From the NCBI GenBank assembly GCA_963798915.1, contig CAWCVB010000002.1:64001-128000 (forward strand): a stretch of DNA of 64,000 nucleotides, given 5' to 3'. Position numbers and translations under genes: made by a program. The stretch's first letter is position 1, and each line of letters opens with the position of its first letter. The DNA is from an uncultured Gemmatimonadales bacterium (GTDB lineage: Bacteria > Gemmatimonadota > Gemmatimonadetes > Gemmatimonadales > GWC2-71-9). Below are positions 77 through 59,060 of this stretch, piece after piece. A model generated the notes under the pieces. The model was not told the DNA's origin. It saw nothing but the letters and a program-made list of their open reading frames with translations, and did no database searches.

Positions 77-302
77 CTTGCGCCTCCGGAATGCCGGGAT
101 GTTCGAGGCCCTGGCAGCCGTGGCGCTGGTCCTGGGACTGGTCTACACCGGCACCGGCATCACTGGCTTGCTCAGGAATGCGCCGCTGGCGCCGGTCCTC
201 ACCGGCTTCGGTGTGGCCGTGAGCGGGCTCGCGATCTGGCTTCGGCGCTGGGTTCACAGGTCGGGCAGGACCGGCGGGACGGGCGGGACGGGCAGGTTCT
301 GA
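69..302 (+). CDS. small two-TM membrane hypothetical protein
   Basis: Two hydrophobic segments; C-terminus (GRTGGTGGTG) is encoded by a 9-bp repeat. Confidence 0.5.
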   Translation: MADLRLRNAGMFEALAAVALVLGLVYTGTGITGLLRNAPLAPVLTGFGVAVSGLAIWLRRWVHRSGRTGGTGGTGRF

Positions 303-770
303 CGAACCGTCATCATGCCCGAGCTGCTCATGGACCCCGGTTTGCACCGGGGTGAACAGCCGGCGTGCTTCGTCCAACATCTCTGTCCTGCCCCTCCTGC
401 CCGCCATGCCCATCCTGTCCCGTGTGTGGCCTCGCCGGGGGTGTGCGTCTCCTGAACCGGGGACACGCGCCCACGTCGGCACCGTCAGTCTCGATGAGTC
501 CGCGGGCATTTGGAGCAGGACTTGTCGCAGGGTTGCCGGCGTGGGACCCCATTTCTGGACGCGGGACGCGCGGCTGAAAGCCGCTATTTGGCACGTGTCG
601 CCCTGGGGGCGACATTGCTCACCATCGGCTCCCCAATCAAATTCCATATTCAAAGTTGGCGCCGTCCTGACGCGCAGTCGCCGCAGGCGCCAAATGCCGA
701 GCAGCGGCGCTTAGCCGCGTCGTCTCGCATCCCAAATCCATCAGCCCGAGTCCCGCATCCCGAGTCCACC

Positions 771-1193
771 ATGGGTCGGAGCATCCTCGCAGTCTTCCTT
801 GGCTGGGCCGCATCGCTGTTCGTAATTGTTGTCGTCGAAACGGCTGGCCACGCGCTCTACCCAATGCCCGCTGGCGCCGACATCTGGCGCCAGCCCGAGC
901 TGGCCGTTGGGCTGGCCATTCCGGCCGGCGCGATGATGCTGGTCATCCTGGGCTGGGCGCTTGGGGCGCTGGCGGGCGGCTTCCTCGCCGGTCGCCTGGT
1001 CCAGGCCAGGCAAGAGGCGCACGCGCTCGCGGTGGCCCTGCTGATCCTTGGCTCGGCCGTCTGGACCATGCTCACCCTGCCGCATCCGGCCTGGGTCTGG
1101 GTGGCCAGCGTCGTTCTGGTGCCCGGTGCCGGCTGGTTGGGCGGCAGGCTCGCGATCCGGCGGGGCGAGGCGTATCATCGAGCAGCCGGCTGA
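771..1193 (+). CDS. four-TM membrane hypothetical protein
   Basis: ATG at 771 (MGRSILAVFLGW); four hydrophobic helices. Confidence 0.75.
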   Translation: MGRSILAVFLGWAASLFVIVVVETAGHALYPMPAGADIWRQPELAVGLAIPAGAMMLVILGWALGALAGGFLAGRLVQARQEAHALAVALLILGSAVWTMLTLPHPAWVWVASVVLVPGAGWLGGRLAIRRGEAYHRAAG

Positions 1194-1838: not shown

Positions 1839-1845
1839 GCCGGCC

Positions 1846-2452: not shown

Positions 2453-2592
2453 GGGTCGACGGTCGACGGTCGACGGTCGCGATGCAGATAGTCCGACGCG
2501 TCATTGCGAGGGCACGCAGCGCCCGAATGACGCGTTGACTGTTGACCGTTGACTGTCGACTGTTCGACCGTTGACTGTCGACCGTTGACTGA
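2453..2592. repeat. heptamer STR - palindrome - heptamer STR element
   Basis: GGTCGAC tandem units, ACGCGTCATT...AATGACGCGT core (2496-2535), then GTTGAC(T/C) units. Confidence 0.85.
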
Positions 2593-4378: not shown

Positions 4379-4422
4379 GGACGGGACCGGCGAGACCGGC
4401 GAGACCGGCAGGTTTCGATGGG

Positions 4423-4520
4423 TCGTCCTTCCAGCGCAAGCTGGAATCCATGAGGGTTCACCCGGAGTGAATGGCCATGCCCGAGTCCCTCGTGGACCCC
4501 GGTGTTCACCGGGGTGACGA
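4423..4520. repeat. 98-bp two-hairpin REPIN-like element (family A)
   Basis: TCGTCC-TTCCAGC/GCTGGAA-TCCA...TGGA-CCCCGGTG/CACCGGGG-TGACGA; homologous to 29599-29695 (reverse). Confidence 0.85.
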
Positions 4521-4600
4521 ACGGGCGAGACTTTCGCCTTTCAACCCTCGACTCTCGACTCTCGACTCTTGGCCCTCGACCCTCGACCCTCGACCCATCT

Positions 4601-5931: not shown

Positions 5932-6059
5932 GGTCGACGGTCGACGAAGGCTCGCCCGTTCGTCAGCCCTGCGAAAGCAGGGGTCCAGCGCGTGATGCGG
6001 GCTCCGTACGATCCAGCTTTTCGGACATCGGGACCATTTCCATGATCCCGTAACTACTC

Positions 6060-6219
6060 AACGCAGAGTCGCAGAGGACGCGGAGGAATTCAGAGGGATC
6101 ATTTCACCGCCATGCTTCCCGATCCACAACCACCACCATCAGAAGTTGCTTGTGGTTCTGCGGGTTGGCTCCGTGTCTCTGTGCCCGCTGAGATCTCTGC
6201 GCCTCCGCGTCTCTGCGTT
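6060..6219. repeat. inverted 9-bp-unit repeat pair (family B)
   Basis: AACGCAGAGTCGCAGAGGACGCGGAG ... CTCTGCGCCTCCGCGTCTCTGCGTT. Confidence 0.8.
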
Positions 6220-6241
6220 GGCAGTCAGGGAACACCGCGCC

Positions 6242-7101: not shown

Positions 7102-7158
7102 CACCACCAAGCCCAGAGCGCCCGACATCTCGACCCGCGACCCGCGACCTCCAGCCGT

Positions 7159-7863
7159 CTACCCCGCGTACATCAACCGGCACCCTGCCTCCTGGGCCCG
7201 GGTCACCGCGAAGATGCCGGAGGGCATCAGGGTCACACCTGGCACCAGGTTGGCGCGAAGGTCGGTGTACACGTCCTTCGCTTCCAGCTTTGCCTTCCGG
7301 GCCAGCATCCCTGACATGAAGCGCAGCGCCATGTTGCAGGCCAGTACCGTCTGCCCCCGACGCATGAGGGTGTCCAACCCGCCGTCCGGCCAGATGAGCC
7401 CGTACTGGTCGTCCGCCTGGCTGTTGGCGTTGAGGAACGGGTTCCGCTCCGCCGGCTTGCCGCTGGCCGGATCCTTCTGCTCATAGGCCTTGCCCAGCCG
7501 GTACTTGGCCCACATGGCATCGTTGACCACCATGGGAATGGCCTTGTGCCGGAACACCAGGACGCCGTGCATGTCCGCATCAGTCGTGGCGTAGACTTCC
7601 TGAAATCCGGCAAGCCAGACCCGCGCCTGGTGCAGGGCATCACCCTCGCTGATTTCGGGCGCGTCGAACACCTGGCGGTGGTCGCCGGTGATCCGGTCTA
7701 CCCAGCTCATGTCCCAGTCGCCGGGCGGCAGTGGGCGGGCCGAGGGCGTCATGGCCCGCAGCTCGGCCGGCACCACGCTGCTGGCGGCGAGAATGGCGGC
7801 GGTGCCTGCTACTTTTCCCAGGAACGCGCGCCGGGGTGACGGCGCGTCGGATGAACTGGTCAT
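7159..7863 (-). CDS. Tat-exported DsrE-like hypothetical protein
   Basis: PRRAFL Tat motif; HRQVFD, LACNMAL, PSGIFAVTRAQEAG C-terminus. Confidence 0.7.
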   Translation of the reverse strand: MTSSSDAPSPRRAFLGKVAGTAAILAASSVVPAELRAMTPSARPLPPGDWDMSWVDRITGDHRQVFDAPEISEGDALHQARVWLAGFQEVYATTDADMHGVLVFRHKAIPMVVNDAMWAKYRLGKAYEQKDPASGKPAERNPFLNANSQADDQYGLIWPDGGLDTLMRRGQTVLACNMALRFMSGMLARKAKLEAKDVYTDLRANLVPGVTLMPSGIFAVTRAQEAGCRLMYAG

Positions 7864-7954: not shown

Positions 7955-8716
7955 ATGAACCGTCTGTTGGCGCTGGCCGTCATCGCCATCATTGTTCCCG
8001 TCATGCCCGTCTCCGCCCAGCAGGTTCCCGACATTGGCTGGCCGCCGGCCGATACCTCCCGTCCGCGACCACCCGTCATCACGCCCGGACCGGCGGGCGC
8101 GCCGGTTCCGGCGCCGTCGGACGCCGTCGTGCTCTTTGAAGGAAAGGACCTCTCGCGGTGGCGCTCCGACAGCGGCAAGGCCGCCGGATGGACCGTGCGA
8201 GATGGGTACATGGAGGTGAAGCCGGGGGCTGGGACGATCCGGACGGCGCAGGGATTTGGCAGCATGCAGCTTCACATCGAGTGGGCCGCGCCCACGCCGC
8301 CAACCGGCGAAGGCCAGGAGCGCGGCAACAGCGGGGTCTACCTGATGGGACTGTACGAAGTGCAGGTCCTCGATTCGTACGACAACCCCACGTATGCCGA
8401 TGGCCAGGCCGCGTCGCTCTATGGCCAGTACCCGCCGCTGGTGAACGCCAGCCGGCAACCGGGCGAGTGGCAGACCTACGACATCATCTTTCACGCACCG
8501 AGCTTCACAAGCGACGGCTCACTCGAACGCCCCGCCGTCGTCACGGTCATCCATAACGGCGTGCTGGTGCAGGACCATGTCGTGCTCACCGGTCCCACCG
8601 CGCATCATGCCCGTCCGCCCTACAAGGCACACGCCGACAAGCTGCCATTGATGCTGCAGGATCATGGGAACAAGGTGCGGTACCGGAACGTGTGGGTGAG
8701 GGAGCTGGGGAGCTGA
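7955..8716 (+). CDS. DUF1080 (3-keto-disaccharide hydrolase) domain protein
   Basis: Signal peptide; LFEGKDL, GNSGVY, YEVQVLDS, LQDHG, YRNVW. Confidence 0.9.
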   Translation: MNRLLALAVIAIIVPVMPVSAQQVPDIGWPPADTSRPRPPVITPGPAGAPVPAPSDAVVLFEGKDLSRWRSDSGKAAGWTVRDGYMEVKPGAGTIRTAQGFGSMQLHIEWAAPTPPTGEGQERGNSGVYLMGLYEVQVLDSYDNPTYADGQAASLYGQYPPLVNASRQPGEWQTYDIIFHAPSFTSDGSLERPAVVTVIHNGVLVQDHVVLTGPTAHHARPPYKAHADKLPLMLQDHGNKVRYRNVWVRELGS

Positions 8717-8746
8717 GGGACAAGCGAAACCGAAGCTAGCCACTGG

Positions 8747-8801
8747 TGTCATTGTGCGAAGCCATCGAACTGGGCGACGAAGCAAACGGCTCGCAATGAC
8801 G
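8747..8801. repeat. TGTCATTG...CAATGAC palindromic element (family C)
   Basis: Terminal inverted GTCATTG/CAATGAC between convergent genes. Confidence 0.6.
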
Positions 8802-8805
8802 CGAA

Positions 8806-10468
8806 TCAGCGAGAGTCGCCTTCCCGACTTCCCGTCTTCCCGCCCTCCCGTCGGTAATTCACATCCAGCGCGTCCAGCCGCTTCAGGTGCACCTGCAGTC
8901 GCCGCAGGAAATCAGCGTAATCCCGCCGCTCCTCCGGCGTCCACATCACTTCGCTGAACGCCGAGGTGCGGGGATAGGCCATGTACTCCGCCTGCTTTGG
9001 ACTGGGGATGTACTCGGTCCAGAGCTGGACCTGGGCTCCGAGAATGTGCTTGCGGTACTGCGGCTCCAGTGAATCGGGATACGGCTCATACGAATACACC
9101 GTGTCCATGGGCAGGTAACCACCAATGGCGATCGGTTCGTGCGCCGTGTCCAGCGACTGATAATGATCCAGATAGGTATGGCTCCCCGGCGCCATGACCA
9201 CATCGTGCCCCTGGCGCGCGGCGGCGATACCGCCCGCGACGCCCCGCCATGACATCACCGCCGCGCCCGGTGCCAGCCCGCCTTCGAGGATTTCGTCCCA
9301 GCCGATCAGCCGGCGGCCGTGGGCCGTGAGAAACTTGTCCATCTGGCGGATGAACCAGCTCTGCAGCTCCGACTCATCCTTGAGTCCCAGCTCCCTGATG
9401 CGCGCCTGGATCTCAGGGCTCGATTTCCACTGCGCCTTGGCGGCCTCGTCGCCGCCCACGTGAATGAACTTGGAGGGAAACAGCTCCATCACTTCGGTGA
9501 GCACGTCCTGATAGAACTTGACCGTGGCATCGGTCGGCTTGAGGATATTGCTGAAGACGCCCCAGTAGGTCGCCACCGTGGTGGTATCGCCTGCCATGCC
9601 CAGTTCGGGATAAGCGGCAATGGCCGCCACCGAATGTCCCGGCATTTCGATTTCCGGCACCACGTTGATGTGCCGCTCCGCGGCGTAGGCCACGATTTCC
9701 CGGATATCGTCCTGCGTATAGAAGCCGCCGGTCGGTGTGCTGTCGAACCGCATGGGCGCGCCGTTCCGCGGGTAGGGCGGAATCATCGTCTCCTTACGCC
9801 ATGCCCCGACGCCGGTGAGTTTCGGATACTTCCGTATCTCGATCCGCCAGCCCTGGTCATCGGTAAGGTGCCAGTGGAAGCTGTTCATCTTGTGGAGCGC
9901 GAGGAGGTCGAGGTACTTCTTGACGAACTCCTTGGGCATGAAGTGCCGCACCACGTCCAGGTGGGCGCCGCGCCACCGGAATCTTGGCTGGTCCTCGATG
10001 GTGACTGCCGGCATCGTCCACCGCATGCTGTCCAGCGGGGCTTCCCGGAAAATAGCCGGTGGCAGCAGCTGCCGGATGGTCTGGATGCCGTAAAAGAGCC
10101 CCGCGATCTCCGCGCGCACGCACGGTGACGCGGCGGGTCGTGACGGTGAGCCGGTACCCCTCGGGGCCCAAGGCGCCGAGCGAGGTATCCCGGATCAGCA
10201 CCAGTTCCGACGCCCCGGGCGTGCCACCCACATGGACCGGCAGCCGCCATCCCATGGCGGGTTCGAGATAATCGGCCAGCTGCTCGCCGATGTGCCGACC
10301 ACCATGAAGCACCCGGATCGCCGTCCCCGGCACGACGTGAAACACGCCGGTGCCCATGGTGACGTGGGCGGGGCGGGGAATGACCGCGAGCACGCCTTGA
10401 GCCGAGGCCAATGCCGGTGCCGGTGCCGTTGCGATGGCGCAAATCGTTGTCAAATAAAGCTTTAGCAT
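8806..10468 (-). pseudogene. beta-N-acetylhexosaminidase (GH20) with one frameshift (real or sequencing error)
   Basis: N-terminal VIPRP...EGYRL domain in ORF 9857-10468; PRFRWRG.HLD, HLTDDQGWR, HVGGDE in ORF 8806-10119; join near 10110-10120. Confidence 0.85.
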
Positions 10469-10571
10469 TTAGATACGGTTGCGGGATGGCGGATGGTTGA
10501 GTTTTGTAGCAATTTGGGATGCGGTCGCGAGTCACGGGTCGCGAGTCTCGTGACCCGCGACCCTGGACTCC

Positions 10572-13371: not shown

Positions 13372-13424
13372 GCGCGAAGGCGGTCAACGGTCAACGGTCG
13401 ACGGTCGACGGTCGACGATTCAAT

Positions 13425-13452
13425 GTACGGGCACGGCATGCCGTGCCCCTAC
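13425..13452. repeat. GTAG-type REP
   Basis: GTACGGGCACGGCATGCCGTGCCCCTAC, between a GGTCRAC heptamer array and a C-rich 9-mer array. Confidence 0.85.
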
Positions 13453-13601
13453 GTCCTGCCCGTCCCGCCCGTCTTGCCCGCCTTGCCCGTCCTGTCGAGC
13501 CGCCATCCCTAGCCGAATCACCCCATATGACGCATAGTCATAGGTACCTGGCAGCCGTCCGTGGGGTGCCAGGACGCGGTGTCACCTTTCTGGAGGGCGA
13601 T

Positions 13602-19284: not shown

Positions 19285-19404
19285 GAGATGGGCTCCGGGT
19301 CCGGAGATGGGGGAGTCCACAGATTACGCAGATTCGGGGGATGGCGTAAGAGGGTCGAGGGTCAACGGTCAACGGTCGACGCCCGACGACTATATTATCC
19401 CCGC

Positions 19405-20058
19405 ATGACGACGGCATTCAAGCGCGCCACGCTTATCGGGGCAGCCCTGCTCCTCGCGCTCGCATCGTGCGACCGACGACCGTCAACCGACGACGGACGC
19501 CCCTCCGTTGCCGACGCCGCCAGCTGGACCTTCGAACCGGGAGTGGCGTTCGGGGCGGTCAATGCCAATTCGTCCGAAGAGGATGTGATCGCGGCCTACG
19601 GCGCCGCCCAGGTCCAGCCGGAGGCGGTCTCCCTCGGCGAAGGAGAATCCGAGTCCGGCGCCGTGGTGTTCCCCAACGATCCCGAGCGCCGATTCGAGAT
19701 CGCCTGGGGCGATACCCTGCAGCGCCGGGCGCCTGCCTTCGTGCTGCTCACCGGCGACTCGACCCTCTGGCACAGCAGGCGTGGCGTCACGCTGGGCCTG
19801 TCGCTGACCCGACTGGAAGGGCTCAACGGTGGGCCTTTCGGCATGGCTGGCTACGGCTGGGACTACGGCGGCTCGGTATTGTCGTGGAAGGGCGGTCGCC
19901 TGGCGGACCTGGAAGGCAGGCTGGCACTGGCCCTTGCACCATCGAGCCCGGACGCTGACGTGTCGCACGTACTTGGAGACGGCGAATTTCTTTCCTCGGA
20001 CTCCGCCTTGCGCCGCCTCAATCCCCGGGTCAACCGCCTGGTGATCCGCTTCGAGTAA
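19405..20058 (+). CDS. hypothetical lipoprotein
   Basis: Lipobox LASC; LNGGPF...GYGWDYGG. Confidence 0.7.
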   Translation: MTTAFKRATLIGAALLLALASCDRRPSTDDGRPSVADAASWTFEPGVAFGAVNANSSEEDVIAAYGAAQVQPEAVSLGEGESESGAVVFPNDPERRFEIAWGDTLQRRAPAFVLLTGDSTLWHSRRGVTLGLSLTRLEGLNGGPFGMAGYGWDYGGSVLSWKGGRLADLEGRLALALAPSSPDADVSHVLGDGEFLSSDSALRRLNPRVNRLVIRFE

Positions 20059-20534: not shown

Positions 20535-21535
20535 CCGGCCAAGCCACTGCGCTCACCCGCCATGCCGGCATCCAGCTGCCCTTGATCTGCGGGGCCATGT
20601 ATCCCTGCAGCAATCCCGAACTGGTGGCCGCCGTGAGCGAGGCCGGGGGCATCGGCATCGTGCAGCCGCTCTCGCTCACCTATGTCCACGGCTACGACTT
20701 CCGGACCGGCATTCGCTACATCCGGCAGCTGACCCAGCGCCCGGTCGGCATGAACGCGCTCATCGAGCAATCGTCCCGGCACTACCACGAGCGGATGGAA
20801 CGCTGGGTGGATATTGCCCTCGAGGAAGGCATCCGCTTCTTCGTGACGTCGCTGGGAAATCCGCGCTGGGTCGCGCAACGCGTGCATGCTGCGGGCGGTA
20901 TCGTCTACCACGATGCCACGGAGGCAAAGTGGGCGCTCAAGGCGCGGGACGCCGGCGTCGATGGCCTCATTGCCGTCAACGCCCTTGCCGGCGGCCACCC
21001 GGGTACCCGAACGCCGGAGGCGCTGCTCGCCGAGCTGACCCCGGTCGGCTTGCCGGTCGTCTGCGCCGGCGGGGTGGGCGATGCCGCGGGCTTTGCGGCG
21101 ATGATGCGCCTGGGCTATGCCGGCGTACAGATGGGAACCCGGTTCATTGCCACCACCGAATGCCGGGCGAGTGACGCCTACAAGCGTGCGATCATTGCGG
21201 CTGATGCCGATGACATCGTCCTGACTGAGCGGATCACCGGCGTGCCCGTGGCCGTAATCCGGACGCCGTTCGTCGAGCGCATGGGAACCCGCGCCGGCGT
21301 GCTGGCCCGCTGGATGCTCCGGCATCGCCGGACCAAGCGAATCATGCGTACCATTTATGCACTTCGATCCCTCTGGCAGCTCAAGCGCGCGTCGCTGGAC
21401 GAATCGGGCGAGCGTGACTACTGGCAGGCGGGACGGAGCGTCTCGGCGGTAGATTCCATCGAGCCCGCCGGCGCGATTGTGGAACGGTGTGCCTCGGCAA
21501 GGGGAGAGGGATCAGCAGTTCGGGAGCAGGGCTGA
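20531..21535 (+). CDS. nitronate monooxygenase / FMN-dependent oxidoreductase
   Basis: GAMYPCSNPELVAAVSEAGG, AGGH, CAGGV, QMGTRF. Confidence 0.9.
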   Translation: MTGQATALTRHAGIQLPLICGAMYPCSNPELVAAVSEAGGIGIVQPLSLTYVHGYDFRTGIRYIRQLTQRPVGMNALIEQSSRHYHERMERWVDIALEEGIRFFVTSLGNPRWVAQRVHAAGGIVYHDATEAKWALKARDAGVDGLIAVNALAGGHPGTRTPEALLAELTPVGLPVVCAGGVGDAAGFAAMMRLGYAGVQMGTRFIATTECRASDAYKRAIIAADADDIVLTERITGVPVAVIRTPFVERMGTRAGVLARWMLRHRRTKRIMRTIYALRSLWQLKRASLDESGERDYWQAGRSVSAVDSIEPAGAIVERCASARGEGSAVREQG

Positions 21536-21559
21536 GAGCCGAGCCTCAGCTCGTTCGCA

Positions 21560-21610
21560 CCCCAACCCCTAATCCCCAATCCCTAACCCCTAACCCTAAC
21601 CCCTAATCCC
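21560..21610. repeat. CCC(C)TAA(T) telomere-like short tandem repeat
   Basis: Eight runs of 3 or more C; five CCCTAA units directly before the next ATG. Confidence 0.9.
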
Positions 21611-23867: not shown

Positions 23868-23977
23868 CCGCTCGTCCCACCGCGTGCAGGGCAGGTCCAT
23901 TCGTCCGTCTCCACCTTGAAAGCCATCGGTCGTCAGTCATCAGTCGACGACCGACGACCGACGACCATGGATACGTC

Positions 23978-29522: not shown

Positions 29523-29735
29523 GACGGTTAGACGGTTAGACGGCTGGAGGCTGGACGGCTGGACGGCTGGACGGCTGGACGCGAAGAAGCTAACCCATTC
29601 GTCACCCCCGCGAAGGCGGGGGTCCATGAGGGACTCGGGAATGGCGACCCACCCGGATGAGCCCTTATGGATTCTCGCTTTCGCGAGAATGACGAGAGCC
29701 GGCGTTCTCTCCAGCCGTCCAGCCGTCCAGCCGTC
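29523..29735. repeat. octamer STR - family A element - complementary octamer STR
   Basis: GACGG(T/C)T(A/G) units, core 29599-29695, then CCAGCCGT x3. Confidence 0.9.
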
Positions 29736-32003: not shown

Positions 32004-32047
32004 GGGATGCATCTCGCCCATCCTGCCCATCTCGCCTCATCCTGTCG

Positions 32048-36000: not shown

Positions 36001-36186
36001 CCGCGCTGGGGCCTGCTCGGCCGGGTGCGCCTGCTGCGCGCCTCGATCGAGGCTCGACTGGGGCATGCGGATGCCGCCCGGCAGGAATACCAGCTCGTGC
36101 TCGCGCAGTGGAAGGATGCCGATCCGAGCATGCAGGAATACGTCCGCATGGCCCGGGTCGGGCTGGCGGCATTGGAAGAAGGTTAG
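33073..36186 (+). CDS. membrane Hanks-type Ser/Thr protein kinase with TolB-N-like and TPR regions
   Basis: GRGGMG, AVK, HRDIKPEN, DFG, TPTYMSPE; TM helix; VLPFSNL; TPR-like repeats. Confidence 0.92.
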   Translation: MTDNPADLARRVSDALGPQYRLEGELGRGGMGVVFLARDIALDRPVAVKVIHPELAGHESITRRFLDEARTIARLRHPNIVAIHSSGTNGDLLWYVMDRVPGETLRARLDREGRLPPDEAARITADLAGALDAAGAAGVVHRDIKPENVLLEAGSGRPLLADFGIARAMEVDNTDPRTALGVAVGTPTYMSPEQAAGDQVDSRSDLYSLGVVAYEMLSGKPPFQGPHRLVVSQHLSQRPASLKKIRPELSPVLADVVMRALEKNPAERWQSGAEFRQALLGQGTGRGAAAGRPQTTARRRARLAAIFGTAVLLVGLGAVALFGRRNGPPAGVNPRLSLLVLPFSNLRHNRALNWLSEGSVSMLALNLSQWNDLKVVDNERLHDILDQHDIRNGADVGLDMARRLAREAGVWTVVMGEYEQVGDSLHLTARVYDVASGQRVETAEVSAAPGDDVRPVFDDLAARLLDLSGAPSETRTVLAEATTSSLEAFRAYLQGSESLNNWDLAAAERSLKRATDMDSTFGLAYYKYALTRGWLVGADDSLSSVAMARATAHSTSLPQRQRTIINAYRAFIGGSFREARGLYSQLIARDTTDADAWYGLGEAWFHDERAPEGHATAMTESLRAFDRTLALDPDYALAYEHIEQMLTGASRDGAGIALMPGDSFVPAMGRNGRSTLDSAARAAAAQRARSAVVTLARNWVATQPTTYRAHSALVDAYIASKDYPAALAELARYDAVAANHPEVRFVEARIRFASGDVDRAAQLLTQALDSVTPDDFRSFESTPNVLGDVAAAANVFAMRGDVANATRAIEFTDRVRQEVFPGLVASAGGGDQWRRSALAQLYGNLGTPDAALRRVWHATAEDSRLAPPERRKAILRAGAPAAVGLFTGLVIDTSALAELTALTGEPPAPELQAWMALARHDTAEARQLISQQDTTRRENDPRPLAAAVYAELGEYQTALKLLESFSPAEFSTRGFDPRWGLLGRVRLLRASIEARLGHADAARQEYQLVLAQWKDADPSMQEYVRMARVGLAALEEG

Positions 36187-36310
36187 ACGGCGAGACGGCG
36201 AGACGGCGAGAGCGGCGAGCGGCGAGACGGCGAGACGGCGAGACGGCGAGTATGTGCTGGTGAGAACCAATCGTCCAGCCGCCTAGCCGTTGAGCCATCC
36301 AGTCGCCTAT
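36186..36310. repeat. GACGGCGA octamer array and degenerate C-rich partner
   Basis: About 7 GACGGCGA-like units beginning at the kinase stop; CCAGCCGC/CTAGCCGT units at about 36270-36310. Confidence 0.85.
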
Positions 36311-36694: not shown

Positions 36695-36696
36695 AG

Positions 36697-36728
36697 GCGG
36701 CCCCCGAATCCGGTTCGGGGGCCGCTTT
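36697..36728 (+). terminator. intrinsic terminator after rnpB
   Basis: GCGGCCCCCGAA-tccgg-TTCGGGGGCCGC-TTT. Confidence 0.8.
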
Positions 36729-41077: not shown

Positions 41078-41094
41078 GCATGACCTCGGTGTGC

Positions 41095-41320: not shown

Positions 41321-41322
41321 AA

Positions 41323-42778: not shown

Positions 42779-43036
42779 GGTCGCGAGTCGCGAGTCATGA
42801 GTCGTGGGTCGAGTGCCTCAGGAGTGGATTCTCCCACCGTCTTCATCCTGAAGGAGTGCAGCGACTGAAGGATCCACCAGCGCATTCCGGGGAATGGCAA
42901 AGCAGATCCTTCGCGTTGCCCAGGATCGGGGGTTAGGTTTTTTCAATCGGCGACCTTCGGCTCCCACGACCCACGACCCACGACCCACGACCCACGACCC
43001 ACGACCCACGACCCACGACCCACGACCCACGACCCA
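42779..43036. repeat. heptamer STR - family C palindrome - (CCCACGA)x10
   Basis: GTCGCGA/GTCATGA/GTCGTGG units; TCATCCTGAAG...GAAGGATC...GATCCTTCG...CAGGAT core 42843-42926; 10 perfect CCCACGA units 42963-43032. Confidence 0.9.
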
Positions 43037-45595: not shown

Positions 45596-45621
45596 CCGAC
45601 GACTGATGACCGACGACCATC

Positions 45622-46935: not shown

Positions 46936-46974
46936 GCGCAGGGGCGACGCATGCGTCGCCCCTGCGCCTATTTC
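46929..46974. repeat. 46-bp perfect palindrome with REP core, probable bidirectional terminator
   Basis: GAAATAGGCGCAGGGGCGACGCA|TGCGTCGCCCCTGCGCCTATTTC; includes the mnmE stop. Confidence 0.9.
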
Positions 46975-46994
46975 TTCCCGTCTTCCCACCTGCA

Positions 46995-47939: not shown

Positions 47940-48016
47940 GCGCCATGATAGAACGTGGGTGGTGTCTACGCAAGACGGAAGACGGGAAGACGGGAAGGCG
48001 GGAAGGCGGGAAGAAA

Positions 48017-48886
48017 TTAGCGGTAGGAACTTCCGGTCTTTCCGTCCTCCCGGCTTCCCGCCTGCTTGTTGCGCGAGACTTCGTCCAGGAACCGGCGCTC
48101 GGTGGGCGTGAGACTCGCGATTCCATTGGCGCTGATTTTGTCGAGCAGGCGGTCGAGCTCGGCGGTGGTGCTGTCGGGTTCGGGCCGGGTGCGGCTCCGG
48201 ACCGTGGCTGGTGGCGAGCGCCGGCCTCTCGCAGCCTCACGCGCGGCCGGCGGCACCCGCACCATCCGTTCAACCGGGCGCGGCTGGAACCCGGGCCCCT
48301 GGGAGGGTTGCAGGCGGAAGAACAGGAAACCGAAGATGGCCCCACCCACGTGTGCGATGTGGGCGATACCGTCACCCGGCGCCAGCAGCGAGAAGGTCAC
48401 GTCCAGCGCCACCAGGCCAATCACCAGCGTGCGGGCGCGGATCGGCACCGGAATCGGAAAGACAAAGAGGCGCGCGTCGGGCCAGTACAACGCGAATGCC
48501 ACCGCCAGGCCCAGAATGGCGCCGGATGCGCCGATGATGGGGCCCACCGGCATCACCAGGCTCAAGGCCCAGCAGAATGCTGCCGCGCCGATACCGCAAT
48601 AGAAGTAATAAAGCAGGAATTTCCGGCTGCCCATCCGCTCCTCGACCGGGCAGCCGAAGACGAACAGGCCGAGTGAATTGGCCAGCAGGTGGAGCAGGCC
48701 GCCGTGGACAAAGAGATAGGTGACGAGACCCCACGGCTGGGAGATCACGTGTGCGGGGTCGAACGCGAGCGCCAGGCTGATGCCGGGCGCCGTAAAGATG
48801 GTCTCCAGCAGGAGCAGCACCACGGCGTTGGCGGCAATCAGGCGGCCAACCCATGGGGTGATCCGGGGATACGACAGCAAGCTCAT
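48017..48886 (-). CDS. rhomboid family intramembrane serine protease with C-terminal extension
   Basis: HLLAN, GASG, HVGG; C-terminal LDRLLDKI...L. Confidence 0.92.
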   Translation of the reverse strand: MSLLSYPRITPWVGRLIAANAVVLLLLETIFTAPGISLALAFDPAHVISQPWGLVTYLFVHGGLLHLLANSLGLFVFGCPVEERMGSRKFLLYYFYCGIGAAAFCWALSLVMPVGPIIGASGAILGLAVAFALYWPDARLFVFPIPVPIRARTLVIGLVALDVTFSLLAPGDGIAHIAHVGGAIFGFLFFRLQPSQGPGFQPRPVERMVRVPPAAREAARGRRSPPATVRSRTRPEPDSTTAELDRLLDKISANGIASLTPTERRFLDEVSRNKQAGSREDGKTGSSYR

Positions 48887-50535: not shown

Positions 50536-50709
50536 GGCGGTTTCCCGAAACAGGGTGTCGGGGAACGGTGCCATAGCGGGTGGCCGAGATCTTCACCGTC
50601 TTGACGCGTGAGTAAACGATTCCACGCGCATCGGGTCCGGCGGCCGTGCGTGGGGTGACGGGATACTGCACAGGCGCCGGGTGACGGCGAAACCAACGGA
50701 CGGGCGTCG

Positions 50710-50957
50710 GGCGTCGGGCGACGAGGTACGGGACTGGCGTCGGGCGACGGGGTACGGGACTGGCGTCGGGCGACGGGGTACGGGACTGGCGTCGGGCGAC
50801 GGGGTACGGGACTGGCGTCGGGCGACGGGGTACGGGACTGGCGTCGGGCGACGGGGTACGGGACTGGCGTCGGGCGACGGGGTACGGGACTGGCGTCGGG
50901 CGACGGGGTACGGGACTGGCGTCGGGCGACGGGGTACGGGACTGGCGTCGGGCGACG
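50710..50957. repeat. 26-bp tandem array, 9 full units plus a partial unit
   Basis: GGCGTCGGGCGACGGGGTACGGGACT x9 (first unit has one G>A), running into the terminal REP. Confidence 0.95.
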
Positions 50958-50969
50958 CAAGCGTCGCCC

Positions 50970-52759: not shown

Positions 52760-52855
52760 GGCGAAAGCTAGCCAGGACGGGCAGGGCGGGCGAGACGGGC
52801 AGGGCGGATGAGAAGTGAGTTTGCTTCGGTGCTCACAGCTCACAGCTCACAGCGC

Positions 52856-54028
52856 TCAGCTCACAGCGCTCAGCTTCCCCACCACCCTCTCCAGCTCATC
52901 CGCCCCACTCACCGTCCCTTGCGCCGCTCTCGCTGACCCACCGCCGCGGCCGCCAACGTCAGTCAGTGCTGCCTTGAGAACCGCGCCGGCATTCCATCCC
53001 GATTCTGGCCCCGCGGCAACGAAGATGGTCGTGGGCTCGGTCTGTGTGGCCACGAAGCGCACGCCTGCGATGCCGCCCATCGCCTGCGAAATGGCGCGGA
53101 GTTCCTCCGCCGAGTAGTCGTGCGACAGGAGTGTAATGCGCCGGACGCCGCCGGCATCCGGTTCGACCCCTTCGGCCAGCGCCCTGGCACGTGAAATCGC
53201 CACTTCCGCACTGAGCTTTCTCAATGTGGAGCGTGCGTCCCTGAGCTGAGCGGCGAGTTGCTCGATGGCCTGGGGAACCTCGCCCTTGGGTGCACTCAGC
53301 GCGCTCGACGCCGCGCCCAGCAGCGACTCGTTCGCCCTCGCATGCGTGATGGCGCGCCAGCCGGCCACGAACGACACCCGCGCCGTTCCTTTCACCCGTT
53401 CCGCGCCGAGCACCAGTATCGGGCCGATCTCTCCAGTATGGCGAACGTGGGTGCCGCCGCATGCGCTCCGGTCCAGGTTGTCGATCGCAATGATGCGGAG
53501 CGTTCCGGTGCGCCTGGAGGCCTTCCGCAGCCCCGCCACCTCATCAGCCGCTTCAAAGGAGACCGTGACCGGCCGGTCTTCCATGACGATCTCGTTGGCG
53601 CGCCGCTCGACAGTTGCCAGCTGCTTCTCGCTCATCATCTCGCAATCGAGATCCACGGTGCTGGTCTCGTCGCCGAAATGCACGCTGGTGGTGTGAGCGC
53701 CGAGCAGGGCCTCGAGGAGGGCGGATAACAGGTGCTGGGCGGTGTGCTGCTGGATGTGATCGAGCCGCCGGGGCCAGTGCACCACGCCCTCGACCTCTGT
53801 GGCGCTCGTAAGCGGTTCGGCGAGCAGGTGGGCAATGCGTTCGCCCTCGTCCACCACATCCAGGACGCCGACGCCGCCAAGCATGCCAAGGTCATGCGGC
53901 TGGCCGCCGGACGTCGGATAGAATGCAGTGCGATCCAGGTAGACTCGCCGACCGCCTTCGGCGCGTTCGATGACCCGGGCAGTGAACGTGGTAAGAAACG
54001 AATCAGTGTAGTACAGCCGCTCGGTCAC
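52856..54028 (-). CDS. alanyl-tRNA editing protein (AlaX-L, with DHHA1)
   Basis: FYPTSGGQP.D.G, QQHTAQH, CGGTH, GGRGGG. Confidence 0.9.
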   Translation of the reverse strand: MTERLYYTDSFLTTFTARVIERAEGGRRVYLDRTAFYPTSGGQPHDLGMLGGVGVLDVVDEGERIAHLLAEPLTSATEVEGVVHWPRRLDHIQQHTAQHLLSALLEALLGAHTTSVHFGDETSTVDLDCEMMSEKQLATVERRANEIVMEDRPVTVSFEAADEVAGLRKASRRTGTLRIIAIDNLDRSACGGTHVRHTGEIGPILVLGAERVKGTARVSFVAGWRAITHARANESLLGAASSALSAPKGEVPQAIEQLAAQLRDARSTLRKLSAEVAISRARALAEGVEPDAGGVRRITLLSHDYSAEELRAISQAMGGIAGVRFVATQTEPTTIFVAAGPESGWNAGAVLKAALTDVGGRGGGSARAAQGTVSGADELERVVGKLSAVS

Positions 54029-55260: not shown

Positions 55261-55480
55261 GGGCGGCTCGGCGGCTCGGCGGCTCGGCGGCTCGGCGGCT
55301 CGAGGGTCGAGGGTCGAGAAGTGTGTCATCCCGAGGCCGCGTAGCGGCTGTAGGGATCTACTCGCCCGTGTCCCGACGCTGGCCAGTAGATCCCTCGCTC
55401 TGCTCGGGATGACAATTCGCTAATTTCGGCATTCTTCCCGTCTTCCCGTCTTCCCGTCTTCCCGTCTTCCCGTCTTCCCG
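55261..55480. repeat. octamer/heptamer STR - family C palindrome - (TCTTCCCG)x6
   Basis: GGCGGCTC and GGGTCGA units; core TGTCATCCCGAG...GGGATCTAC...GTAGATCCC...CTCGGGATGACA 55324-55414; six TCTTCCCG units 55433-55480. Confidence 0.9.
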
Positions 55481-55484
55481 TGCC

Positions 55485-58073
55485 TCACCCCTGACGCCCC
55501 CTCTCCGCTTTCCGCTGCAACTCCGCCAGCCGGTTCAACGCCTCGAGCGGCGTGAGTTGATTCAGATCCAGGCCCCGCAGGTCATCCATCACCGGATCGG
55601 AGGGCGGGACGAAAAGGGCAAGCTGACCCGGGTCACGTGCTGGCGGCGGAGTGCCCGGTACGACCCGATGATCCCCTTCGAGTGTGCCCAGCACTTCGCG
55701 CGCCCGGCCGATTACACCCTCGGGAAGGCCGGCCAGCTGGGCCACGTGAATGCCATACGACCGGTCCGTCCCACCCGGCTGGAGCCGATGGAGGAAGACC
55801 ACCGTGCCGCCACTCTCCTGCACCACCACGTTGCAGTTGCGTGCGTGCGCCAGTCGCTCGGGCAGCTGCATCAATTCATGATAATGCGTGGCGAACATGG
55901 TTTTGCAGCCGATCGAGTCGTGCAGGTATTCGGTGACCGCCCAGGCAATGGCCACGCCATCGTAGGTGGACGTGCCCCGGCCGATCTCATCCAGGAGGAC
56001 CAGGCTCCGCGGCGTGGCGTTATGCAGGATGGCGCTGGTCTCGCTCATCTCCACCATGAAGGTGCTCTGGCCCTGGCTCAGATTGTCGCTCGCACCCACC
56101 CGAGTGAACAGTCGGTCCACCACGCCGATCTCGGCGCGTTCCGCGGGCACGAAGCTGCCCATTTGCGCCAGCACCACGCAGAGCCCGATCTGGCGCAGGA
56201 TGGTGCTCTTGCCGGCCATGTTCGGCCCGGTCACGAGCAGGACTCGCTCCGCCTCGTCGAAGTGCACATCGTTGGGCATGAAGCGCTCGCGCGGCATGAG
56301 CCGCTCGATCACCGGGTGCCGACTCTGCGTGAGCCGGAGCCCAAACCCGTCGCTGATCACCGGCCGCTGGTACCCATGCCGCATCGCCTGATCAGCGAGC
56401 GCACCAAGCACATCGAGTGTGGCCAGCGCGCCGGCGGACGCCTGCAGGCGGCCCACGAGCGCACCCGCGGCGGCCCGAAGCTGGGCAAAGAGGTCTCCCT
56501 CGCGCACCAGCAGCCGTTCCTCGGCGCCGAGCACCTTGGCCTCGTACTCCTTGAGCTCGGGCGTGGTGTAGCGCTCGGCGCCGGAGAGTGTCTGCCGGCG
56601 GTCGTAGTCGTCCGGCACCCGCCCGATGTGCGCATGGGTCACCTCGAGGTAGTAGCCGAACACCTTGTTGAAACCCACCTTGAGCGACCCGATGCCGGTG
56701 CGTTCGCGCTCGCGCTGCTGCAAGGTCGCGATGTAACGGCGGCCCCCATCGCGGAGGTCACGCAACTCGTCCAGCTCAGCGTCGAAGCCTGGCCGGATGA
56801 TTCCTCCATCGCTCAGCAGTGCTGGCGGGCGCTCGGTCAGCGCGCTGGAGAGCTGGCCACCCAGATCGCCGTGGAGGTCAAAATTCTGCTCCAGCGCGGC
56901 AAGCCGGGCACTCGCCTCACGATTGCCCACGGTGCGCAACGCATCCAGCACGTCCGGCAGCCGCGCCAGTGAGTCGCGAAGCGCTGCCATCTCGCGCGGG
57001 GTCGCGCGGCCCGCCGCCGCCCGCCCGCCCAGCCGCTCCAGATCGCGGACGCCATCCAGCGCATCCCGTAGCCGCTCGCGTCCCCGGTGATCGGCGGCGA
57101 GCACACCCACCGCATCGAGCCGGGCGTTGATCTCGCCGGGGGACGACAGCGGGGAGAGCACCCATTGGCGCATGAGCCGAGCGCCCATCGGCGTCACTGT
57201 ACAGTCCAGTGCCTCGAGCAGTGTGGCACCGCGTGCCCCGGCGCGCAGCGGCTCCACCAGTTCAAGATTCCGGCGGGTCATCTCGTCGAGCCAGAGAAAG
57301 GCGTTGCTTCGGCGGATGACGGGCCGGGTCAGGTGAGGGAGCCCGCCCGGCTGAAGTTCGGTGAGATAGCGCAACAGGGCACCGGCGGCCCCGACGGCGG
57401 CGTCGTCGCCGGCGCCAACTCCCAGGCCATCGAGCGATGCCAGAGTGAACCGGCGGCAGAGGTCATCGCGACCCAGGTCAGGATCAAACTCCCATGCCTC
57501 GCGCGGCGTCCGCATGACGGTCTCGTCCACGGGGATCCGGGCGTCGGCCGCCGCGACGATCTCGCGGGGCGACAGGCGGGCCAGCGCTTCGGCCACGCCA
57601 TCGGCACCGATGGTCTCGAGCAGGAACTCCCCGGTGGAAATGTCCACCGCTGCGAGCCCGCACATGGGCCCGAGACAGAGCCCGACGAGGTAATTGTTGC
57701 GGCTGCCCGGCAACCAGCCATCCTGCAGCATGGCGCCGGGCGTCACGGTCTCCACGACTTCCCGCCGGACAATGCCCTTGGCGAGCTTGGGGTCTTCCAC
57801 CTGCTCGCAGATGGCGACGCGGTGGCCGGCACCAACCAGCTGGCGCAGATATTCGGCAGCGGCCTTGACCGGCACGCCGGCCAGCGGCACGCCGTCGCCG
57901 CGCGCCGTCAGGGTGATGTCGAGCACCCGGGCGCCAAGCTCGGCGTCCTCGAAGAACATTTCGTAGAAATCGCCCATGCGAAAAAAGAGGATCGCGTCCT
58001 GATGGCGAGCCTTGATTTCGCGATACTGCTGCATGAGCGGGGTGCCGGCCATGCGGTGGGTACTACCGGTCAC
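55485..58073 (-). CDS. mutS: DNA mismatch repair protein MutS
   Basis: TPLMQQY, GDFYEMF, TGPNMAGKST, STFMVEM, DEIGRGT; start GTG 58073 or ATG 58052. Confidence 0.98.
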   Translation of the reverse strand: MTGSTHRMAGTPLMQQYREIKARHQDAILFFRMGDFYEMFFEDAELGARVLDITLTARGDGVPLAGVPVKAAAEYLRQLVGAGHRVAICEQVEDPKLAKGIVRREVVETVTPGAMLQDGWLPGSRNNYLVGLCLGPMCGLAAVDISTGEFLLETIGADGVAEALARLSPREIVAAADARIPVDETVMRTPREAWEFDPDLGRDDLCRRFTLASLDGLGVGAGDDAAVGAAGALLRYLTELQPGGLPHLTRPVIRRSNAFLWLDEMTRRNLELVEPLRAGARGATLLEALDCTVTPMGARLMRQWVLSPLSSPGEINARLDAVGVLAADHRGRERLRDALDGVRDLERLGGRAAAGRATPREMAALRDSLARLPDVLDALRTVGNREASARLAALEQNFDLHGDLGGQLSSALTERPPALLSDGGIIRPGFDAELDELRDLRDGGRRYIATLQQRERERTGIGSLKVGFNKVFGYYLEVTHAHIGRVPDDYDRRQTLSGAERYTTPELKEYEAKVLGAEERLLVREGDLFAQLRAAAGALVGRLQASAGALATLDVLGALADQAMRHGYQRPVISDGFGLRLTQSRHPVIERLMPRERFMPNDVHFDEAERVLLVTGPNMAGKSTILRQIGLCVVLAQMGSFVPAERAEIGVVDRLFTRVGASDNLSQGQSTFMVEMSETSAILHNATPRSLVLLDEIGRGTSTYDGVAIAWAVTEYLHDSIGCKTMFATHYHELMQLPERLAHARNCNVVVQESGGTVVFLHRLQPGGTDRSYGIHVAQLAGLPEGVIGRAREVLGTLEGDHRVVPGTPPPARDPGQLALFVPPSDPVMDDLRGLDLNQLTPLEALNRLAELQRKAERGRQG

Positions 58074-59060
58074 TTGTCCACGACAAGAAAGGCGCCCGGA
58101 AAGTCGTCGCGCAGCTTGCGGATTGCAGCCACCGCATCGGCGCGACTGCTGAACGCGCCCGCCCGCACCTTGAGAAAGCCGCCTTCCTCGACAATCAGTG
58201 CCTCGTAGCCCAGCTGGCGCACCTTGGTCGCATTCTCATTGGCCATGGCGCGGGTGCCGGCGGCGATGACCTGAACTCGAAAGATGGTCGTGGGTCGCTG
58301 GGGCGCGGGTCGTGGTATCAAGACGGGCGACGAGCACGCCAGGCTGCGAGTCGACGGTCGACGGTCGACCGGTATCCGCCGACTGACGACCGACGACCGA
58401 CGACCCGTTGTCCGTCTGTCCGTCTGTCCGCCCACCCGCCTCTGCAACCACAATCGTGTCCCGCGGTGGCCCCGGCGGCGCCTTGCTGCTTCCCTCCGCG
58501 AGCGCGGTGGCGGAGCAGCGACGGGCAAAGGCCTGGAGCTGGTCGCGCACGGCCGGACCGGCTTCATCGGCACGCGCCAGGCCCATGCCCACCCACTCGC
58601 AGCCGGAGTGCTCCTGCCGGGCATCGAAATAGGTCCGTGCCGCCCAGAAGGCGGCATCGGCAAAGACATCCGAGCGGGGAAAATCGGAACGAAGCCGCTC
58701 GAGGTCACGCATGGCCGCCGGAAGGTTGCCGCCGGCGTAGTCCAGCTGCGCCAGGCGCAACAGTGCATCGTCACCCCAGGGCGAGAGCGACTGTTCCACT
58801 ACCACCTGCTGCAGTGCGTGCCGCATGCTGTCGGGATCGGCCACGAGGGTGGCGGCCGTGTACAGCGCCTCGGCCTGCAGCGGGCTGCCGGGCGCGGCCT
58901 GCTTGCGCACGTCGCGGACGATGCTCATTGCCGAATCCCGGTATCCGTCCTGCGCGAGTGCCACCGCCTGCCTGAGCCTGGGATCGGTCTGCGCCATCAG
59001 ACCGCGGCTCACCAGCAGCAGCGCAATGATGGCGATGCAGGCCGGCCGAACGTCACGCAT
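58070..59060 (-). pseudogene. secreted TPR + SPOR domain protein, frameshifted in a repeat-rich linker
   Basis: Signal peptide and TPR-like region in ORF 58236-59255; SPOR (FRVQVIA...KVRAGAF) in ORF 58070-58774. Confidence 0.8.

Follow-up and report, generated by a model that had tools for sequence, protein, structure and literature searches.

In a 64,000-nucleotide window of DNA from an uncultured Gemmatimonadales bacterium (GCA_963798915.1, contig CAWCVB010000002.1, positions 64,001 to 128,000; coordinates below are counted from the first letter of this stretch), the spacers between genes carry tandem arrays of 7-9 bp units that are local, fast-evolving, anchored at the ends of open reading frames (ORFs) and locked in orientation. 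Where two such arrays face each other across a spacer they give a picture of "G left, C right", with a G-rich array on one side and a C-rich array on the other; we call such a facing pair, with whatever lies between, a module, and the two arrays its arms. The layout is real, statistically strong and reproducible. As an explanation we favour, with slightly better than even confidence, intergenic arrays that are anchored at coding ends with the G-rich strand running 5' to 3' from the nearest gene toward the middle of the spacer, and that are produced by slippage and kept by selection at the gene border. To our knowledge, heptamer-type tandem repeats in bacterial spacers have been familiar for decades without a function.

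Tandem Repeats Finder (TRF) returned 70 rows for the window. With a period of 6-10 and at least 2.5 copies there were 43 rows, of which 19 were heptamers, the commonest period, as against 1-7 rows in each of ten first-order Markov simulations. The arrays are mostly intergenic (29 of 39 after merging), intergenic DNA making up 11.4% of the window (p ~1e-19). An initial annotation of this DNA had named 15 loci with a G-rich left and a C-rich right arm, and arrays were present at or near all of them; together with 8697-8852 and 19353-19499 they make up 17 modules, whose boundaries were delimited by hand and which lie between tandem (12), convergent (2) or divergent (3) genes (Table 1). The G-C skew was above zero in 16 of the 17 left arms and below zero in 16 of the 17 right arms, and the left-minus-right difference was positive in every module. 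Two arms of the original 15 loci depart from their description: the right arm 2534-2591 is T-rich instead of C-rich, with a skew of +0.10, and the left arm 23927-23945, with a skew of -0.09, is not G-rich. An automatic count of adjacent arrays (TRF period 6-10, at least 2.5 copies, gap of -3 to 300 nt, skew threshold 0.1) gave nine pairs in which a G-rich array precedes a C-rich one (G>C) and none in the reverse order (C>G; binomial p 0.002), besides one G>G pair, two C>C pairs and three pairs in which an arm is neutral; in the G>G and C>C pairs two arrays stand side by side on one flank. When all spacers of at least 40 nt were printed, a G-rich array was seen at the left edge, often followed by a palindrome, and a C-rich array at the right edge. 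The window has a G+C content of 64-69%, with a GC skew per 4 kb between -0.031 and +0.032, and in gene flanks free of short tandem repeats the sense skew averages -0.07 on the upstream side of starts (n=25) and +0.016 on the downstream side of stops (n=20). Base composition, which the initial annotation had named as the possible undoing of its rule, was ruled out by these values as the source of the polarity; since there is no regional skew and the repeat-free flanks are nearly skewless, the polarity is a property of the repeats.

An order of G on the left and C on the right is invariant under reverse complementation and hence strand-symmetric, so that it amounts to a sense strand that is G-rich after a stop and C-rich before a start; equivalently, the 5' end of the G-rich strand lies at the nearer gene, regardless of the direction of that gene. 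An ORF end is overlapped, or lies at most 15 nt away, in 11 of the 17 left arms and 11 of the 17 right arms, and the starts at 771, 4601, 21611, 29748 and 45622 have C-rich arrays within 0-12 nt, as had been pointed out for them earlier. The earlier description of the arms as intergenic holds in part, the 3' ends of ORFs being overlapped by 262-293, 8697-8720, 8820-8852, 21500-21535, 48031-48066 and 52831-52875. A C-rich arm also stops 8 nt short of the RNase P RNA gene (36319-36699), and for this reason the polarity rule is not confined to translation starts. Arrays without a partner agreed with the side rule in nine cases and disagreed in one in the window, the corresponding numbers being 4 and 2 on other Gemmatimonadales contigs and 13 and 7 on Acidobacteriota contigs; the automatic gene caller used over-extends ORFs across arms on contigs and makes the test noisy. 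This count excluded arrays with more than 50% of their length in called genes, absolute skews below 0.1, side differences below 15 nt and spacers above 1500 nt. The start- or stop-codon content of the arms was considered as a cause of the orientation and dropped, the units showing no clear difference on inspection.

The arms of the window comprise a dozen or more unit families, with lengths of 7, 8 and 9 bp, and they are interchangeable; mixed pairs, for instance a left 9-mer facing a right 7-mer, are genuine. When arms and single arrays were turned to the G-type orientation, the pentamer GACGG was present in 19 of 42 and its complement in one, and GGTCG was likewise present in 19 of 42 and its complement in none, against a background of ~7% of 40-nt segments. 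Because 7-, 8- and 9-mers share oriented pentamers, the orientation is defined at the level of motifs besides that of composition. Left and right arms draw on a common pool of unit families, with the orientation reversed from one side to the other, and the modular, self-symmetric layout proposed by the initial annotation is borne out.

For comparison, contigs were scanned with a 20-mer from the commonest arm, which gave at least 121 loci in many phyla. None of the contigs fetched in this way was closely related to the window (no megablast matches and only seven distant protein matches), and the turnover of the repeats was for that reason followed in two contigs from other metagenome-assembled genomes (MAGs) of Gemmatimonadales, L017 and L049, and in the tails of proteins. 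The two contigs are syntenic at 73-83% identity. Behind the same gene, one of them has a (GGTCAAC)5/(GTCGACC)3 hairpin and the other a different short G-type array, whose unit consists of the last codons of the gene plus the stop, followed by a different palindrome. At another spacer, L049 has an array, a core resembling a miniature inverted-repeat transposable element (MITE) and a C-rich tract, ~210 nt in all, where L017 has 21 nt, an empty site. At a third spacer the same core family is combined with different arm families at equal polarity. The GH20 hexosaminidase next to the module at 8697-8852 tells of similar turnover: in all 29 sequences listed, that of the window and those of 28 homologues, conservation extends as far as a common ...YR/FR end. 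Past this point the window and seven of the eight closest homologues (85-92% identity) have periodic tails with much Gly, Arg, Asp and Thr, from at least two unit families and of differing lengths; some more distant homologues have hardly any tail and end after a single residue. The arm begins exactly where the protein constraint ends, with the stop codon in or beyond the arm, and the repeat is replaced fast with its G-rich sense orientation kept. The C-terminal tails of the GH20 protein (8806-8852) and of a rhomboid protein (48017-48066) are alike, both with GKTGS, because both ORFs enter the same 8-mer repeat family, which gives a repeat-encoded C-terminal extension. In the stretch 8806-10535 the GH20 ORF has 437 residues, compared with ~530-570 in homologues, and the N-terminal part that it lacks seemingly lies in 10120-10535 in another frame, which could reflect a frameshift, a pseudogene or a sequence error.

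The pair count was extended to the other lineages among the loci listed. The Gemmatimonadales contigs (82 kb) gave 12 G>C pairs and one C>G pair (p=0.0017), the latter being the junction of two neighbouring modules, and the Acidobacteriota contigs (169 kb) gave 12 and two (p=0.0065). No bias was seen in the contigs of Tidjanibacter (228 kb; 14 G>C and 13 C>G), the Actinomycetota had none and three, and the remaining loci 15 and 10. Tidjanibacter, with 6.1 arrays per 10 kb against 6.6 in the window, thus serves as a negative control: the bias is no artefact of the pair count, and the rule depends on lineage. By eye, a C-type arm, (GTTGACC)n-like or other, came 3' of (GGTCGAC)n at 13 of 18 Gemmatimonadales anchors, often without a core, and the repeat was never directly preceded by a C-type arm belonging to it. 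A narrow count of junction hexamers at the 20-mer anchors (in Gemmatimonadales, 3 of 14 on the downstream side and none of 14 on the upstream side) proved too insensitive, and the TRF pair count was used instead.

Several further occurrences of (GGTCGAC)n were noted on these contigs. The unit is also found in six loci of Tidjanibacter MAGs (L002, L004, L005, L006, L008 and L024), Bacteroidota of much lower G+C content, where its neighbours are ATTGAAA-, AATTGAG- and TGACAAC-like heptamer arrays, palindromic elements and terminators built as A-run, hairpin and T-run; in one locus (GGTCGAC)n lies 15 nt upstream of a gyrB-like start. Two loci of one Gemmatimonadales MAG, L011 and L054, have coding flanks of ~70-77% identity and a nearly identical (GGTCGAC)4-5/(GTTGACC)2 hairpin; they may be paralogous loci or strain variants whose repeat is more conserved than the flanks. 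In L001, L036, L073 and L090, from a MAG labelled Rickettsiales (CAZLEO...), a label that looks doubtful given the high G+C content, degenerate GGTCGACGGTTTGG units of like orientation come after (GGTCGAC)n, with no partner arm, and in L090 the array stands just upstream of a tRNA-like sequence.

The palindromic core that the initial annotation had often placed between the arms was found, by eye and from inverted-repeat pairs, in about nine of the 17 modules and is lacking in the remainder. These cores are separate guests between the arrays, either palindromes of the repetitive extragenic palindromic (REP) type or MITE-like elements. The inverted-repeat search gave REP-like palindromes at 46929-46974, 26811-26854 and 13424-13451; the motif GGGCGACGC..GCGTCGCCC has six strand matches, corresponding to about three sites in the window, and cores with GTCATYSCGAG terminal inverted repeats occur as two inward-facing pairs. 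Taken alone, the cores may be MITEs. An ORF resembling a REP-associated tyrosine transposase (RAYT; 50029-50574) has palindromes on both sides and scores above the cut-off for Y1_Tnp and below that for REP_Tyr_transpos; it is relevant to the REP-like cores and not to the arms. In the stretch 50575-50969, just upstream of this minus-strand ORF, 50710-50957 holds 9.5 copies of a 26-bp unit (99% matches, G-rich on the plus strand, with a small CGTCG..CGACG hairpin in each unit). The array ends in a REP-like palindrome and looks like a tandem cluster of REP-derived units.

Two readings would tie the arms to what lies between or across them. Under one, G-arm, core and C-arm would form a single self-symmetric mobile element, similar to a MITE or to a bacterial interspersed mosaic element (BIME) and copied in trans by the RAYT or another transposase. 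This would account for a RAYT-like ORF flanked by REP-like palindromes, for the inward-facing pairs of GTCATYSCGAG-terminated cores and for the spacer that is empty in L017, yet we consider it very improbable. The same core family has different arms both within the window (262-421 versus 4381-4596) and between L049 (880-1090) and L017 (5820-5860 with 7770-7850), about eight of the 17 modules are without a core and many arrays are single, orthologous positions bear different arm families, and arms start exactly at the conserved coding end and may contain the stop codon. By eye, neither a recurrent outer boundary nor a target duplication was seen in the window spacers, and no whole module recurs in the window, the inverted-repeat search listing within-module pairs only; as a unit, the module in these respects does not behave as a MITE. 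The single element mobilised in trans that the initial annotation had envisaged is therefore not upheld, given the variable arms per core, the arms without cores, the family swaps at orthologous spacers and the GH20 arm at the protein end. Under the other reading the arms would be selected to pair as a long mRNA hairpin, serving as a terminator, a 3'-end protector or a REP-like intercistronic processing site, with the polarity as a property of the hairpin. RNA folding of the 15 listed modules on both strands against shuffled sequence gave z < -5 on both strands in 5 and on at least one strand in 7; arm complementarity reaches 86-100% at 29523/29710, 2455/2565, 39911/39940 and 47996/48045, the order of (GGTCGAC)n and its C-type arm at the Gemmatimonadales anchors fits a hairpin, and C>T differences in the right arm preserve G.U pairs on that strand. 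Against this, 6 of the 15 modules fold no better than z = -3 on either strand, arms of unrelated families keep the polarity (4385/4529, 13381/13452 and 52773/52831), over the 15 modules gene direction does not predict which strand folds better, and single arrays without a partner tend to obey the side rule. The best-matched arms (29523/29710; 26 nt, 100%) sit in a divergent spacer, 6 and 12 nt from the starts of the two genes, which argues against an RNA hairpin because no ordinary transcript should hold both arms. A window scan for a G+C-rich hairpin with a T-rich tail gave two candidates outside genes, neither of them at a module, and a terminator role was dropped; an asymmetry of G.U pairs as a mark of the transcribed strand was inconsistent over the 15 modules and was also dropped. 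Selection for RNA structure, the other origin considered in the initial annotation, thus has support only in part, with about a third of the modules folding clearly better than shuffled sequence; we regard it as unlikely. The complementarity looks like a frequent consequence of one arm pool used in opposite orientation, perhaps plus DNA-level copying between arms, and not like a selected property.

The arrays might instead act at gene borders by forming G-quadruplexes (and i-motifs), a role suggested by Rehm et al. for GGGAATC repeats. At least four G3 tracts occur on the G-rich strand of 12 of the 34 arms of the 17 modules (for example 262-293, 13452-13494, 21560-21610, 42963-43036, 47972-48014 and 55433-55481), and the units of 21560-21610 are near the published GGGGAYT class; but 14 of the 34 arms, among them the GGTCGAC, GACGGCTG, AGACGGCG and GTCGTCG families, have no G3 tract and obey the rule all the same, and no preference for four units is visible among the copy numbers of the TRF rows of the window. 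With these proportions quadruplexes are not a general answer, and as an account of the polarity we hold them very doubtful. A last alternative would deny the arrays any function and make the polarity a by-product of slippage, hairpin-templated copying or strand-biased mutation near palindromes and gene ends. It is favoured by the extreme variability of copy number and family, by the unit seeded from a gene's own terminal codons plus stop, by the predominance of heptamers among the TRF rows and by the highly complementary arms in a divergent spacer, which fit DNA-level copying better than selection on RNA. Transcription-linked deamination, however, predicts a sense skew of the same sign on both sides of a gene and not of opposite sign, and the flanks free of tandem repeats are nearly skewless; the orientation moreover survives family replacement and holds in two phyla, yet is absent in Tidjanibacter at a like array density, and arrays without core or partner tend to conform to it. 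The opposite skew signs, the skewless repeat-free flanks and the unbiased Tidjanibacter contigs sit badly with a purely mutational origin, which we judge clearly improbable.

In the explanation that we prefer, slippage would continually make and remake the arrays, and selection at the gene border would retain one orientation only. An RNA polymerase leaving a gene would then write a G-rich trailer, and RNA that runs into a gene, that for RNase P RNA included, would open with a C-rich, G-poor and little-structured tract; where both arms fall on one read-through transcript they could pair, as REP/BIME hairpins do, as a frequent by-product and not as a defining property. Several observations weigh against this explanation. 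At the empty site of L017, array, core and C-rich tract are present or absent together, which fits insertion as a block too. Lone arrays in tandem minus-minus spacers face both ways, with G on the plus strand at 47972-48014 and 50710-50957 and C on the plus strand at 62216-62276 and 63629-63664. The GGTCGAC/GTTGACC family is the most skew-poor, with skews of +0.26 to +0.10, and since it is only weakly G- or C-rich, RNA composition gives a weak handle on it. Two selective rules, one for trailers and one for leaders, fit equally well as a single spacer-centred rule, as each paired locus satisfies both. A Shine-Dalgarno core was seen at none of five starts touched by a C-arm and at 22 of 61 elsewhere in the window, a difference that is not significant (p=0.16) and involves uncertain start calls; a loss of Shine-Dalgarno sequences at such starts was dropped accordingly as a candidate feature. 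The functional step, that is, the border selection and its effects on RNA, is one that we infer.

C-rich, G-poor RNA is the kind on which the termination factor Rho loads. A speculation drawn from the geometry, to which we allow a slim chance, is that the orientation rule is a family-independent code common to Gemmatimonadota, Acidobacteriota, Xanthomonas and cyanobacteria, which would make gene borders one-way transcription gates through Rho. Inbound RNA, whether sense or antisense, would then start with a periodic C-rich, G-poor sequence on which Rho could load, so that untranslated or antisense transcripts would be curtailed and translated sense transcripts protected, and outbound G-rich RNA would go unseen by Rho until it had crossed the spacer; the recognised feature would be the oriented pentamers, GACGG on the inbound strand and its complement on the outbound RNA. 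Apart from this speculation, the published regularity of orientation is not peculiar to one quadruplex-forming unit. The rule spans many families of 7-9 bp, mixed pairs, rapid replacement and two further phyla, and is absent in a third that is equally rich in repeats, which points to an orientation-dependent process at gene borders and not to the sequence or structure of one unit. The orientation count is a simple test for any annotated genome, and arrays that enter ORF ends create hypervariable C-terminal tails and mislead automatic calls of starts and stops.

The window is the neighbourhood of the chromosomal origin. It holds dnaN and dnaA on the minus strand, rnpA, yidD, yidC and mnmE on the plus strand, and mutS and holA further on, with a small rpmH-like ORF, read by eye, near dnaA; no tRNA genes were found in it. 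DnaA has 460 residues and is 78-83% identical in its closest named relatives, from Gemmatimonadales MAGs, and up to 94% in other relatives. The dnaN-dnaA spacer (41078-41322) is the most A+T-rich of the window (53% G+C) and is free of tandem arrays; it has TGTCCAC-like words, among them a palindromic pair, and is a likely candidate for oriC. Two overlapping minus-strand ORFs in different frames within 58070-59255, namely 58070-58774 with a C-terminal SPOR domain and 58236-59255, both cross the module at 58350-58430, where the 7/8-bp repeat may have split or frame-shifted the SPOR-domain gene or may sit in its linker. A further type of spacer element is present in three copies (6059-6220, ~24520-24670 and ~28150-28260), with purine-rich CNCAGAG-like 7-9-mers on the left and their pyrimidine-rich complement on the right, and likewise shows the G-left/C-right polarity; the 19-nt arms at 6059/6202 are 89% complementary.

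Table 1. Repeat modules, single arrays and the RAYT-like ORF of the window (z, fold score against shuffled sequence).
Coordinates	Feature	Arms or units	Core	Setting and fold
262..421	module	G-arm 262-293 (9-mer, overlaps end of ORF 69-302); C-arm 386-421 (9-mer, complementary family)	small hairpin ~340-365	z -5.6/-6.5
745..767	single C-rich array	7/14-mer		ends 3 nt ahead of start 771
2454..2591	module	G-arm 2454-2479 (GGTCGAC x3.7); right arm 2534-2591 (GTTGACT/GTCGACC x8); complementary with G.U pairs on + strand	palindromic, GTCATTGCGAG terminus, 2497-2533	G-arm 2 nt past stop; z -9.1 (+) / -5.6 (-)
4385..4596	mixed-arm module	G-arm 4385-4409 (9-mer); C-arm 4529-4596 (7-mer)	two hairpins	C-arm ends 4 nt before start 4601; fold no better than shuffled sequence, z -2.2/-0.9
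5932..5946	single G-type array	GGTCGAC x2.1		begins at first base past stop 5931
7131..7158	single C-type array		hairpin ahead	abuts stop of minus-strand gene at 7159
8697..8852	module, convergent genes	G-arm 8697-8720; C-arm 8820-8852	MITE-like, GTCATTG...CAATGAC termini	G-arm spans stop of ORF 7955-8716; C-arm encodes last residues of GH20 ORF (minus)
10520..10571	short hairpin module	G-type half, then C-type half	none	abuts stop 10572; z -2.5/-4.9
13381..13494	mixed-arm module	G-arm 13381-13417 (7-mer); C-arm 13452-13494 (9-mer)	GTAC/GTAG-type REP-like palindrome 13424-13451	weak fold
19353..19499	module, divergent genes	G-arm 19353-19381 (7-mer); C-type arm 19470-19499		
21500..21610	module	degenerate GGGNNNN left arm; C-arm 21560-21610 (CCCTAAY/CCCCAAY heptamers)		left arm within last 12 codons of ORF 20531-21535; C-arm ends at start codon 21611
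23927..23966	hairpin module	right arm CGACGAC x3	none	right arm ends at ATG 23967; z -3.2/-6.0
29523..29735	module, divergent genes	G-arm 29523-29581 (8-mer x7.5); C-arm 29710-29735; 26 nt, 100% complementary	two hairpins	G-arm 6 nt from minus-strand start 29516; C-arm 12 nt before start 29748; z -10.1/-9.3
32016..32044	single C-type array	9-mer		fills 44-nt convergent spacer
36185..36310	module	G-arm 36185-36250 (8-mer x8.2); degenerate C-type arm 36270-36310		G-arm starts inside kinase stop codon
39911..39960	hairpin module, convergent genes (ytxH-like, dnaN)		none	z -6.2/-6.1
42780..43036	module, divergent dnaA-rpmH spacer	G-arm 42780-42804; C-arm 42963-43036 (CCCACGA x10.6, 100% matches)		
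45596..45621	two C-type units	CCGACGA-like		fill 26-nt yidC-mnmE spacer
46968..46994	C-type tract			follows perfect REP-like palindrome 46929-46974; abuts minus-strand stop
47972..48066	module	G-arm 47972-48014 (8-mer x5.5); degenerate C-arm 48031-48066		C-arm in last 16 rhomboid codons
50029..50574	RAYT-like tyrosine transposase ORF, minus strand			Pfam Y1_Tnp 26.4 bits (cut-off 23); NCBIfam REP_Tyr_transpos 66.9 (below cut-off 80)
52773..52875	module, unrelated arms	G-arm 52773-52813 (9/18-mer); C/A-rich arm 52831-52875 (7-mer)		no fold signal
55262..55481	module	adjoining G-arrays 55262-55318 (8-mer, then 7-mer); C-arm 55433-55481 (8-mer x6.1)	MITE-like, GTCATCCCGAG termini at 55325 and 55413	C-arm 3 nt from mutS stop
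58350..58430	abutting-array module	G-type 7-mer, then C-type 7-mer and 8-mer		under two minus-strand ORFs in different frames
62216..62276	single C-type array	9-mer x6.8		between two M16 peptidase genes, minus strand
63629..63664	single C-type array	9-mer x4.0		fills minus-minus spacer

REP sequences are extragenic palindromes in spacers, often within operons, and BIMEs combine them in alternating orientations with fixed linker motifs. The window may resemble these systems in the spacer palindromes that form the cores of several modules and in the RAYT-like gene flanked by palindromes, and differs from them in that the arms are tandem repeats, neither palindromic units nor conserved copies; the BIME architecture was not seen. 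The short tandemly repeated repetitive (STRR) sequences of heterocystous cyanobacteria, reportedly described by Mazel and colleagues in 1990, are said to be families of tandem heptamers in intergenic DNA with function unknown. A paired, polarised layout is not known to be part of that description. The array at 21560-21610 presumably resembles the C-rich type of STRR.

TAACTGA direct repeats with a patchy phylogenetic spread in Beggiatoaceae, cyanobacteria and Bacteroidetes have been described by MacGregor (2015; PMC4679880), and heptamer arrays abutting start codons appear both there and in a preprint on Nostoc (10.1101/2022.06.06.494920). The TAACTGA repeats are of one unit without G/C skew and form 169 direct sets with a single indirect repeat, hence no paired arms, and the abstract mentions no arrays at stop codons. 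TAACTGA-like arrays do adjoin (GGTCGAC)n arrays on the Tidjanibacter contigs.

The nearest precedent is the work of Rehm et al. (2015; PMC4692102), which deals with the heptamers GGGAATC, from two Xanthomonas genomes, and GGGGA(C/T)T, from Nostoc. These heptamers are over-represented in non-coding DNA and lie almost exclusively nearer to the ORF at their 5' side, whichever way that ORF is oriented, on the non-coding strand upstream of ORFs and on the coding strand downstream of them, overlap with the stop codon included. There are 70 and 75 pairs "with convergent orientation", one array on each strand; the length and sequence of the repeats vary between close relatives (two Xanthomonas species), no tie to mobile elements or particular gene classes is given, and a preference for four units is reported together with quadruplexes that were shown in vitro and proposed, no function being found. 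The statement of the initial annotation that the polarity rule is undescribed has to be withdrawn in view of this equal rule of position and strand, with convergent pairs, for one heptamer family. Literature searches gave no paper on such repeats in Gemmatimonadota; for the years since 2015, a search on GGGAATC and on heptameric repeats added nothing to Rehm et al. (PMC4692102). The feature of the window is a variant of this published, little-known and unexplained phenomenon. The two are alike in anchoring at gene borders, in orientation, in convergent pairs and in variation among relatives: in the window, too, tandem repeats are concentrated in non-coding DNA and the 5' end of the G-rich strand lies at the nearer ORF, stop-codon overlap allowed; pairs with one array per strand prevail over the reverse order (9 versus 0 in the window, 12 versus 1 and 12 versus 2 on the other contigs); and length and sequence vary between close relatives with position kept, in the L049/L017 spacers as in the GH20 tails. 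They differ in the unit, which in the window is not GGGNATC-like with a G3-4 tract in four copies; only 21560-21610, whose units are related to the GGGGAYT class, comes near the published one. One family with G3-4 tracts there (PMC4692102) stands against at least a dozen families of 7, 8 and 9 bp here, with 14 of 34 arms free of G3 tracts; the arms here are often of different families with REP- or MITE-like palindromes often sandwiched between them, and the phyla are others, Gemmatimonadota and Acidobacteriota. New here are the many unit families and periods, the mixed arms, the frequently sandwiched REP/MITE cores, the rapid replacement of families with orientation kept, and the extension to two more phyla.

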